DNA of 64,000 nucleotides, from assembly GCA_964106645.2 (NCBI GenBank), contig OZ067043.1, one strand, 5' to 3'. Below, in pieces: positions 14,550-18,220 of the stretch. Within the stretch, counting starts at the first letter, position 1; every line of letters starts with the position of its first letter. The notes under the pieces are model-generated. The model saw nothing but the letters and a program-made list of their open reading frames with translations, was not told where the DNA came from and did no database searches. The position numbers and the translations under genes are program-made. Origin of the DNA: Podarcis pityusensis (lineage: Eukaryota).

Positions 14550-14930
14550 AATGAAGTAGGCAAGAGAGCAAGAAGAACCTTGCTGAATCAGGTTGAAGGC
14601 CCATCTAGTCCAGCACTCTATTTTCACTGTGGCTAAACAGATGCCTATGGGAAGCAGAACCTCAGGACAACAGCACTCTCTCCACCTGGGATCCCCAGCA
14701 ACAGAAGTATTTAGCCTCCAGGAGTGGAAGCAGAACACAGACTTCATGCCTAGTAACCATTAATAACTCAATTTTCCATGGATTTCTCTAGTAGTATTTT
14801 AAGCTCATCCAAATTGACAGCCATCATTATAACCAACAGAAGCAAATTCCACGATTTAACTATGTGGGCTGTGCAAAGAAGTACTTTCTTTTGTCTGTTC
14901 TGAATCTTCCAACATCCAGCTTCTAAGTTT
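14550..14930 (-). mobile_element. Degraded CR1-like LINE 3' fragment
   Basis: Minus frame KIQNRQKKVLLCTAHIVKSWNLL..MAVNLDELKILLEKSME resembles a decayed CR1 ORF2 C-terminus; related sequence near 28380-28610 and 55540-55950. Boundaries approximate. Confidence 0.6.
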
Positions 14931-15299: not shown

Positions 15300-15425
15300 C
15301 TGGAAGATTTTCTGGGTGAAGTTCTCTGCTTCCTCTTTCCTCAGTTGCCTCTCCTGGGAGAGCTGTTCTTGTAGGCCCCTCAAGCTCTCATTAGCCTCTG
15401 AAAGGACCAGTTGCAATTCTTTGAT
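15300..15425 (-). CDS. MTCL2: MTCL2/SOGA1 exon F (126 nt, 42 aa: IKELQLVLSEANESLRGLQEQLSQERQLRKEEAENFTQKIFQ)
   Basis: Acceptor ccccgcAG|ATC, donor CAG|GTCAGT; SOGA1-like sequence. Confidence 0.95.
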
Positions 15426-15514: not shown

Positions 15515-15520
15515 TTTATT
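15515..15520 (-). promoter_or_regulatory. Candidate intronic polyadenylation signal AATAAA for the short isoform
   Basis: Plus tttatt gives sense AATAAA, about 600 nt downstream of the TAG at 16117, followed by an A/T-rich stretch. Motif evidence only. Confidence 0.35.
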
Positions 15521-15849: not shown

Positions 15850-16023
15850 CTCAGACACATAGGAGTCCTTCTCCTCTGGTTGATATGACTTGTAGCTCCT
15901 GTCAAGTTCCATGTTGGGATCCACATCCATGGTGGTGGTGCTGTTGCTGCTGCTACTGCGGTAGAGATCAGAGGTCCTGCTCTCCGTGATGTCCCAGTCG
16001 GGGGGCTCCCTAAAGTCGGACTG
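15850..16023 (-). CDS. MTCL2: MTCL2/SOGA1 exon E (174 nt, 58 aa: QSDFREPPDWD...DSYVSE); tandem CAGCAG acceptor (alternative start 16020)
   Basis: Resembles SOGA1 'DFRDLPEWE...DSYASE' (recalled). Donor GAG|GTAGGT, phase 0/0. Confidence 0.9.
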
Positions 16024-16026
16024 CTG

Positions 16027-16826
16027 CATGCATGGGTAAGTTAATGAGAACAAACCAAAAGAGCAGAAAAGAAAAGAAAAAACAAACAAAACAATGGGTC
16101 TCAGGAACAATAAGAGCTACAAGACAACAAAAAGGATGAAGAGGAGGAGGAACTTCACTACCGTGGCAGAAGACAAAGTGGAAAACAAAAGGAGACACAA
16201 AATGAGCAGACACGTGGGCTGGATTGTTTGGGGAGGGGGGAAAAGAGAGAGAGGGAAAAAATGTGCAAACACCAGTTATGGTGCCATGCAGTGCCTGGGG
16301 TGGGGCTAGTTGAGGGAGGAAGGGGGGGCAGGAGCATGCACAAAAATAGAACTCTGAAAAACTGGAGTGTGCTTCAGGAGGTTGCAACCCTTCCCCAGAT
16401 CCCCTTCCCTTTCTTAGGTCTTACCTTAGATCAGAAGCAGCATGTACCTGGCCTCCTGGCAACAGCAGCAGTACTGTTTACCAGAAGGGATGAACTGGAA
16501 GGGAGCCTGGTACTGTGTGGGCACATTGGTGGCACCAATGTGGTGCTGTTGCCGATGCAGCCCATACAATGCCACTACCTGCAAGCAGTAGCAATTCAAT
16601 TGCCAGGAGGCCAGGTGTGCAGTGATGCTCCACTAGCTGCTGTTGTCCTAGACCAGTCTTCTCCAACTTAGTGTCCCCCAGATGATGATGGACTGCAGCT
16701 GGTACTAAATAATTCTTCAGCAGCAGCTGTAATGTGGTTTCCACTTCTCAAAGCAATCTTCCTCCTGCCTCATGCACACTCCACTAAACCAGAGTCCTAC
16801 CTTGTCACTAGCCACAGTTCCATGCA
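16027..16826 (-). promoter_or_regulatory. Cluster of five RBFOX-type UGCAUG splicing motifs
   Basis: Plus-strand CATGCA (sense TGCATG) at 16027, 16285, 16335, 16771 and 16821, all in one 967-nt intron. Confidence 0.7.
16117..16218 (-). CDS. MTCL2: Candidate alternative terminal coding segment of MTCL2: 33-aa hydrophobic membrane tail PTCLLILCLLLFSTLSSATVVKFLLLFILFVVL*
   Basis: Strong pyrimidine tract (tttttccctctctctcttttcccccctcccc) then aatccAG|CCC. Phase 0, in frame with exon D; TAG at 16119-16117. Similar to the SOGA3 C-terminus as recalled. Confidence 0.75.
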   Translation of the reverse strand, partial: PTCLLILCLLLFSTLSSATVVKFLLLFILFVVL

Positions 16827-16990
16827 GTGAGCCAATTGTTAGTTGTCATTTCAGAAAAGAGAGGCAGAAAAGGGAAGTTACATTAACAGGGCCAGGTTCT
16901 GATTTGTTAAAGCAGGAGAAAACAGCATGGGCAAATAAAGCAATAATCACTGCCAGGAAGTTACTGTTGACATCTCAGGAAAAGCCTCAC

Positions 16991-18220
16991 CTGGAATTCA
17001 GAGCCATGAGCTTTCTGCAGAGCCTCTTTTGTGGAATCCTGGGAGCTGGCGCTTGGCAAGGAGTCCTTCTGGTCTTTCAGGTGGTCTCCAATGTAGTCCA
17101 CCTTCCTCATGAAGGTGTTTAGCTCCTGCTGAAGGACCCCAAGCCTCATCAAAATGGCACTGATCAGCTTAGAGTCAGTCATACTCTCATTATCCATGGC
17201 TTCGCTCAGCACCAGCTCTGCACAGTCATTGTCCATGCAGAGCTTGAGACTGGAGGTGAAGCCATTGGCATCAGAGATCAGGACATCAATGGCTTTGCTG
17301 ACAAGCGCAGCCTGGTCCCTGATGTCAAGGAGGGTCTCAAAGTCCTTGGACTTGAGAAGCCTGCAGGGGCTGCTTTCATGCGACTTGCTAAAGCCATTGC
17401 CAGGTGCTCTCTCCTTGGCATCATTCTCTCCCCCAATGGGCACCTCTCTCCAAAGCGACGTTGGGATGCACTGGGCAGAGTCACCAGCCTCAGCATCCGT
17501 CTCCAGCATGGGCCGAGTGGTTTGGCAGGAAGCAAGGTCACAGCGCTGCAAGTTGGAGAGCAGGACACGGTTCTCATACTGGAGCTTCTTAACCTTGCCA
17601 CTTAGCTCACTGATTTGGACCTTGGCCGTGGCCAGTTCTTCTTGGGAGGTCTCACTAATCACTGAGCAGCTGTCCTCAGACAGAGTGATGTCCAGGTCAT
17701 GGTCTGACTTGTACTTATTGAGCTCATTCATGAGGAGCTTGTTCTGCTCCTCCAACTCCATCAGCGAGCGCCTCAGCAGTTCTGCCTCCTCCTCCACAAA
17801 CTGCAAGTGCCGCCTAAGCTCCACCACACTGTCCCCAGAGTCCCCGCAGTTTGTCATGGAGAAGGCAAACCGGATGTCTTGCCCTAAGAGTTCTTTGTCT
17901 CCTTGGCCCCTCATGTCTTCCATCTCTGCCCTCAGCCCTCGGTTCTCAACCTCAAGCTCTACTATCCTCCGGCTCAAGATGTTGGCTTCTTCCTCTACAA
18001 GCTTCAGGTGGACTTTTAGCTCTGCCTCTCTGGAATGAGGGGAGTCAGCCAGTTCCTCTATGGAGAGGGAGCTCTCCAGGTCCCCATACAAGGATCTGTA
18101 CTTCGTCAGCTCCTCCTTCATACTGTCGTTCTCTTTGGCTAACTTGGTCAGTTTCTTGCACATCAGAGCAGATTCCTCCTTAGCAAAATGCAATTGACAC
18201 TTGAGGTCTGCGCTGTCCTC
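16991..18220 (-). CDS. MTCL2: MTCL2/SOGA1 large exon D (1230 nt, 410 aa; SOGA/DUF3166-type coiled-coil region, EDSADLKCQLHFAKEES...HGSEFQ)
   Basis: 410-codon open frame with SOGA-family motifs (LKVHLKLVEEEANILSRRIVELEVENRGL; LSGKVKKLQYENRVLLSNLQRCDLAS). Acceptor tgctAG|GAG, donor CAG|GTGAGG. Confidence 0.97.

Follow-up and report, generated by a model that had tools for sequence, protein, structure and literature searches.

The intron between exons D and E of the lizard MTCL2 gene carries five sense-strand TGCATG motifs, which are real and enriched. Their positions suggest, tentatively and at rather less than an even chance, that RBFOX proteins silence both the acceptor of a membrane-tail exon inside the intron and the acceptor of exon E, giving less of the membrane form and more skipping of exon E. 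MTCL2 intron 5 is a plausible, putative member of the known class of Rbfox upstream silencers. The regulatory logic is the textbook Rbfox position rule and is already known; the setting is new, the MTCL2 tail exon being an old, unannotated acceptor next to a conserved cassette exon.

The window, the whole stretch of 64,000 nucleotides that was analysed, is C6:30070001–30134000 in a 1.5-Gb genome. Its minus-strand gene is identified as MTCL2/SOGA1, a microtubule cross-linker, in agreement with the sequence-only reading: exon D is 100% identical to the Podarcis muralis SOGA1 protein P0001, and a 28-row tree sets a 21-row MTCL2 group apart from MTCL1/SOGA3 by a 100/100 split. The 1749-residue P. 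muralis SOGA1 protein has 11 exons inside the window and three more just outside, and its first 254 residues have no match in the window or in 10 kb on the other side. Counting those 254 residues as one exon makes exon D exon 5 of 15 and the D–E intron intron 5. The landmarks of this region are as follows.

16991–18220, minus strand: exon D of MTCL2/SOGA1 (phase 0, GT donor at 16990; joint at 16991 in 4/4 contig sets)
15850–16023, minus strand: exon E, a 174-nt in-frame cassette exon
15300–15425, minus strand: exon F, whose acceptor is taken upon exon E skipping
16648–16700, no strand assigned: short dispersed-repeat fragment in mid-intron, where contigs of other loci fit

The repeat fragment has three further genomic places at 83–88% identity. 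A repeat origin of the motifs was rejected because this fragment, the sole dispersed repeat found in the intron, carries zero copies of TGCATG. A second short fragment at ~14880–14925 likewise draws reads and contigs from other loci.

All five motifs that had been noticed on the sense (minus) strand of the D–E intron were found, each in its reported place.

16821–16826, minus strand: motif 1, +165 from the exon D donor
16771–16776, minus strand: motif 2, +215 from the exon D donor
16335–16340, minus strand: motif 3, −122 from the tail acceptor
16285–16290, minus strand: motif 4, −72 from the tail acceptor and 4 nt 5′ of a putative branch point
16027–16032, minus strand: motif 5, −9 to −4 of the first exon E AG

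The expectation first attached to them, ~0.24 per intron, was too low and is replaced by a background of 0.52–0.63. Window counts give 0.52–0.62 per intron length, the gene's other introns in the window (nine of ten, with 27 sites in 41,338 nt) give 0.63, and 5000 dinucleotide shuffles of the intron give 0.53. The probability of five or more copies in the D–E intron is 2e-4 to 5e-4 (Poisson or dinucleotide shuffles; shuffle p 2e-4), which becomes 0.005 once corrected for 10 introns and 0.05–0.10 when the count is treated as a free scan across the whole window. The window as a whole shows no enrichment (69 TGCATG vs 62.3 expected), and each of the 180 hexamers that permute the same letters is present at two copies or fewer in the intron. 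Intron J–K (1677–318) contains four sense and three antisense copies in 1360 nt. Motif 5 belongs to a CATG tandem that reads on the opposite strand too, and motif 4 is predicted to be mostly paired (mean unpaired 0.28).

Motifs 3 and 4 precede the acceptor of the membrane tail, which is accompanied by the following elements.

16275–16280, minus strand: putative branch point CATAAC of the tail acceptor, −62 from the AG
16230–16261, minus strand: polypyrimidine tract with a CU repeat at 16253–16241; a similar CU run is found in MTCL1
16117–16218, minus strand: membrane-tail coding segment, with the AG at 16219, 33 hydrophobic codons and a TAG at 16119–16117
15515–15520, minus strand: AATAAA in intron E–F; no other canonical poly(A) signal lies from the tail stop to exon G

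The proposed alternative acceptor for a membrane tail holds up: the frame is open, the constraint is of the coding type, and homologs occur in MTCL1, SOGA3 and fish MTCL2. The CU repeat described at this acceptor was confirmed, and the tract is presumably PTBP-like by its consensus. Three CAC words flank motif 4 (16298–16260), tandem CAC being the RBPMS consensus. The 19-residue Kyte–Doolittle mean reaches 1.8–2.5 over the tail vs a maximum of 1.02 in the long form, and the tail is likely a membrane-anchoring C-terminal segment. Its identity to the tails of MTCL1 and the two SOGA3 copies in the same genome is 58–61%. The tails of MTCL1 and SOGA3 are separated by 21–22 synonymous and 2–3 non-synonymous codon differences, and those of MTCL2 and MTCL1 by 11 synonymous and 13 non-synonymous ones; in the latter pair 5 differences fall on second positions vs 13 and 16 on the other positions. 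A homologous tail is present in four fish proteins placed in the MTCL2 group (28-row tree, 100/100). The fish proteins P0281 and P0286 (933 and 950 residues) end in the tail and are read as spliced transcripts because their contigs measure only ~3.2 kb (3273 and 3204 nt). Among the matches listed, 364 proteins in all, none is an amniote MTCL2 protein with the tail.

The tail stop lies 267 nt upstream of the exon E donor. The nonsense-mediated decay rule being 50–55 nt, a tailed transcript would be subject to decay if the AATAAA at 15520 were not used. The MTCL2 frame stays open beyond the tail TAG; read-through of this stop, or splicing to the TAG as an in-frame acceptor, was rejected as a conserved feature because the MTCL1 frame is closed by a stop codon ahead of exon E. 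In all four paralogous copies the tail stop is a TAG behind a pyrimidine run, which resembles a 3′ splice site, and no use of it as such was seen.

The sequence-only reading had cast the splicing decision as a two-way choice between tail and exon E. Both acceptors are present, but a third outcome, skipping of exon E to exon F, was overlooked: the exon D donor has three in-frame partners, namely the tail AG at 16219, the exon E acceptor at 16024/16021 and exon F. The exon E acceptor comprises two further elements; its branch-point words, like that of the tail, are assigned from sequence only.

16021–16026, minus strand: exon E tandem acceptor CAG-CAG (one Gln more or less; annotations of relatives include both forms)
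16036–16044, minus strand: putative branch-point words TTAAC and CTTAC of the exon E acceptor, whose pyrimidine tract is found upstream of them

The first AG of exon E (16024) is used in four of four RNA-type contig sets. Motif 5 adjoins this acceptor as claimed, but the drawing that accompanied the claim was off, the motif lying nearer, at −9 to −4 of the AG actually used. Lacertid-type contigs join exon D to the first AG of exon E, and exon E to exon F, in 4/4 sets; the sets derive from four runs and at most four studies, and their RNA status is the tool's guess. A joint from D to the tail or from D to F was found in 0/4 of these sets, in an assembly type that drops rare forms. Unspliced contigs cover parts of the D–E intron in X1, X3 and X14 and may be DNA or pre-mRNA; one unspliced contig crosses the tail acceptor. 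Raw reads from runs X21–X24 (2026; 6–12% of each) were too shallow, with 15–23 reads placed per run and 0 joints, and among the runs listed as containing the locus, none is on record as RNA.

Evidence for skipping of exon E comes from database gene models, not reads. A script sorted 268 placed proteins, among the matches listed, into 210 with exon E, 16 called as skipping, 41 without exon F and one unclear; P0251 proved to be a misalignment, which lowers the skipping total from 16 to 15. These 15 annotated proteins, again among the matches listed, belong to 14 tetrapod species: two pythons, two geckos, two turtles, six marsupials, the axolotl and the tailed frog. Skipping was absent among the best 15 of 29 lacertid cluster members and 14 further mammalian proteins, and the proteins fetched include no lacertid, bird or eutherian case. 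The protein homologs considered were the best 120 of 2023, 111/111 and 52/52 matches.

Conservation was read from paralog DNA and, for the orthologs, from translated read-through ORFs; a metagenome scan for ortholog DNA matched at least 590 stretches and confirmed one locus, on a 2.1-kb contig that ends before the region. In MTCL1, a TGCATG at −70 (−72 in MTCL2) is followed by CATAAC at −59 (−62 in MTCL2) and a CU tract. The two genes are identical at 35/90 positions upstream of motif 4 and at 45/72 from motif 4 to the AG. The pair TGCATG-N4-7-CATAAC occurs just 860 times on both strands of the 1.5-Gb genome, and a chance match at the MTCL1 site is therefore unlikely. Exactly 198 nt separate the tail acceptor from the exon E acceptor in MTCL2 (16219–16021) as well as in MTCL1 (L005 2482–2680); this spacing is kept although the spacer past the stop is only 29/72 identical, which points to a length constraint. 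MTCL1 is without motif 3, and TGCACC stands there instead of motif 5; TGCATG is absent from the 160 nt before the tail acceptor in each SOGA3 copy.

The two SOGA3-like genes lie 25 Mb apart on one contig (C3:57.2 Mb, L003/L006; C3:82.35 Mb, L004/L007). They are 89% identical over exon D, exon D plus tail is open in both, and downstream long-form exons were matched behind the first copy only (20 kb fetched). They are possibly the product of a lizard-lineage duplication. Elsewhere in lizard MTCL1, a TGCATG is located ~20 nt before the exon G acceptor (L011 4501–4506) and another ~300 nt before exon F (L011 2683–2688). Atlas look-alikes scored 0.75–0.76 (SOGA3), below threshold.

Comparison of the exon E read-through frame with 1.84 billion representatives yielded five matches. 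One of them, P0365, has an exon E like that of skink proteins and an ORF that runs through the intron, and it is identical over 16 residues across motif 4; it reads TAW over motif 4 and CM (CMQQ) over motif 5. In a frameshift-aware alignment, 24/26, 32/35 and 26/29 codons from shortly 5′ of motif 4 to exon E are compatible with P0365, vs 45/57 within exon E and 3/13 upstream of the conserved block, where a compatible codon does not equal DNA identity. The block 16298–16024, with 82/90 compatible codons, starts 8 nt 5′ of motif 4. It is better kept vs the skink-like ORF than coding exon E is, even where the tail is out of frame. This pattern suggests an RNA-level constraint on 16298–16024 atop the coding one.

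Conservation of the motifs among amniotes, which the sequence-only reading had proposed to check first, appears to hold for motifs 1, 4 and 5 and to fail for motif 2. The ATG of motif 5 opens both a lizard-like ORF (P0366) and a crocodilian-like ORF (P0367). Near motif 3 the skink-like ORF begins with MLL, and 3/13 of the next 13 codons are kept. At motif 1, two reading frames of bird-type ORFs can be reconciled by just one back-translation, and TGCATG is part of it; each frame is ambiguous by itself (8/48 and 2/32), and the joint reading combines different species. Motif 1 appears to be kept in birds. At motif 2, bird-type ORFs have VCP or VCA where the lizard has VCM, and the motif does not appear to be kept there. 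Against the lizard intron, 5/14 read-through ORFs beat shuffled controls. The 9/14 that were no better than shuffled include all six mammal-type ORFs, the crocodilian-like P0242 and two of bird type (P0243, P0250). P0246 exceeded its shuffled control by a single point, in a segment 5′ of motif 1. P0243 and P0246 are among the ORFs that were examined by eye for motif 1. Read-through ORFs of gecko and bird type show recognisable conservation of the first ~230 nt of the intron (16990–16760). Variants in organisms A–C spare the motifs covered, in relatives too close to be informative.

In the available text of PMC2777236, (U)GCAUG upstream of an exon represses that exon, SF1 is kept off the branch point by an element at −34 of calcitonin exon 4, and Fox-1 promotes the alpha-actinin SM exon, presumably by antagonising PTB. 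GCAUG and GCACG are given as the primary RBFOX motifs in the accessible part of bioRxiv 10.1101/840272. In intron 5, the geometry favours repression, with motif 4 adjoining the putative branch point of the tail and motif 5 immediately next to the AG of exon E. RBFOX on motif 4 would hinder SF1/U2 at the branch point 4 nt downstream, comparable to the −34 element of calcitonin exon 4, and RBFOX on motif 5 would hinder U2AF at the AG of exon E. Motifs 1 and 3 may add avidity, with motif 2 being probably lineage-specific. At high RBFOX the membrane-tailed form would be suppressed and D–F skipping favoured. The tail form is predicted to have ~846 residues, to end after exon D plus tail and to be tail-anchored, and it would escape nonsense-mediated decay only via the poly(A) signal of intron E–F.

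This silencing is supported by the elements common to MTCL1 (motif 4, CATAAC, CU tract and 198-nt spacing), by the enrichment (p 2–5e-4) and by the position of motif 4, where the conserved block starts on its 5′ side whether the paralog or the ortholog is compared. Further points in its favour are the annotated skipping of exon E in 14 species, the SOGA3 copies, which retain the tail and have no TGCATG near its acceptor, and the listing of other mouse Mtcl1 exons as RBFOX-sensitive. Against it, motifs 4 and 5 lie inside a block that is conserved throughout, with selection on the motif itself not isolated; MTCL1 is without motif 5, and motif 4 is predicted to be mostly paired. D–E–F is also the sole form in the four lacertid-type contig sets, and the 364 proteins include no tailed amniote MTCL2.

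The explanation that survives best beside RBFOX silencing, one with a real if minor chance of being right, is that the motifs are bystanders. The block would then be kept for the coding tail, the branch points or other factors, and CpG decay would make TGCA and CATG common. The window-wide scan probability of 0.05–0.10 and the four copies in the 1360 nt of the other intron (1677–318) are in keeping with this, as are the conservation of the entire block 16298–16024 (82/90 compatible codons) and the CATG tandem at motif 5, readable on the other strand. The shuffle p of 2e-4, by contrast, speaks against bystanders, and so do motif 4, which marks the 5′ edge of the block in paralog and ortholog comparisons, and motif 1, which appears to be kept in birds although it lies outside the block.

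Published tables, so far as they were available, also agree with bystanders in that those searched contain no CLIP or knockout signal for intron 5. The mouse beta-cell RBFOX2 eCLIP table among the accessible files of PMC10676425 (6,515 rows) has no Soga1 peak in intron 5; the only Soga1 peak in it falls in intron 7 of 14, which would be two introns past the D–E intron, provided that the mouse exons correspond. In the 12 of 24 supplementary files of that study at hand, there is no Soga1 splicing event, and Rbfox2-mutant islets show a change of 0.067 in mouse Mtcl1 exon F; a Soga3 event from the same files was set aside as the relevant exon, since its sizes make it an early exon. Soga1 and its alias are absent from 13 of the 15 supplementary files of PMC5989265, which do mark one Mtcl1 exon as an Rbfox target. 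That exon was considered as exon E and rejected, its intron sizes placing it as a 75-nt exon upstream of exon D. The SOGA1, MTCL1 and SOGA3 rows of PMC10730836 are non-significant (FDR 0.72–0.96), and the gene family is absent from the obtainable supplements of PMC8881802, PMC8559713 and PMC4801060. Titles and the starts of abstracts, most subscription papers being outside reach, mention neither an RBFOX link to SOGA1/MTCL2 splicing nor a membrane-tailed MTCL2. Splicing pipelines based on annotation would miss an unannotated tail acceptor.

The sequence-only reading had favoured the opposite sign, with RBFOX directing neurons or muscle to splice exon D onto the membrane tail. In this form, which we regard as unlikely, RBFOX on motif 5 shuts exon E, or RBFOX on motifs 3 and 4 displaces PTBP, and neurons and muscle switch to the tail. 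Motif 5 does abut the AG in use and its ATG appears to be kept in a crocodilian-like ORF, the CU tract is common to MTCL1, and the alpha-actinin SM exon offers a precedent for Fox-1 presumably antagonising PTB (PMC2777236, available text). However, motif 4, the most deeply kept of the five, adjoins the tail's own putative branch point and predicts repression of the tail, a blocked exon E can resolve as skipping to exon F, which is the annotated alternative, and MTCL1 keeps the tail and motif 4 without motif 5. The direction is more likely the reverse of that earlier guess.

It is improbable that the amniote MTCL2 tail acceptor is a poison switch or slows intron removal, with the motifs tuning gene output: although no tailed amniote MTCL2 protein was found among the matches listed, the MTCL2 tail has drifted (13 non-synonymous differences vs MTCL1, compared with 2–3 between MTCL1 and SOGA3) and unspliced contigs, possibly DNA or pre-mRNA, cover intron parts in X1, X3 and X14, the frame remains open and hydrophobic with 5 second-position differences vs 13 and 16, fish MTCL2 transcripts end in the tail, and a poly(A) signal is available at 15520.

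RBFOX silencing of the two acceptors, if true, would link the choice to neuronal, muscle or mesenchymal state. MTCL1 and MTCL2 have been studied as soluble cross-linkers of Golgi-associated microtubules, and a membrane-anchored form without the C-terminal half would, if true, be a second mode of action for the family. In the accessible text of the MTCL2 preprint (bioRxiv 10.1101/2021.09.07.459224), long MTCL2 binds the Golgi via its N-terminal coiled coil, and minor shorter bands are left unexplained as splice or cleavage products; the word transmembrane is absent from that main text, and no mention of the tail or of exon E skipping was found in it. The tailed form could account for these bands. 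A broader proposition, which we consider doubtful, is that MTCL1 and MTCL2 have kept a hidden three-way switch since the vertebrate genome duplications, with an RBFOX element next to a branch point choosing between the soluble microtubule cross-linker and a truncated, tail-anchored membrane protein, and that the silencer was lost from SOGA3, in which the membrane form became fixed.

Within the gene's own family, SOGA3/MTCL3 and MTCL1 have a homologous hydrophobic end of 33–36 residues after exon D, as MTCL2 does, and we take this tail to be the main, neuron-enriched end of SOGA3. In contrast to MTCL2, the SOGA3 copies are without motif 4 and the CU tract, and MTCL1, in which motifs 3 and 5 are missing, has an additional AG upstream. 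F1-gamma exon 9 and CaV1.2 exon 9* (PMC2777236, available text) likewise have several (U)GCAUG upstream of an in-frame cassette exon, but in MTCL2 two competing acceptors share the intron. Calcitonin/CGRP exon 4, regulated by Fox-1/Fox-2 through an intronic UGCAUG at −34 and an exonic one at +45 (same source, available text), is similar in three respects: a UGCAUG lies beside the branch point, a second one lies downstream of the acceptor, and the choice of acceptor alters the C-terminal product. It differs in that the putative MTCL2 element is at −72, next to a distant putative branch point, and in that the second putative MTCL2 element lies 187 nt inside the tail extension, where it also serves as acceptor region for the exon that follows.
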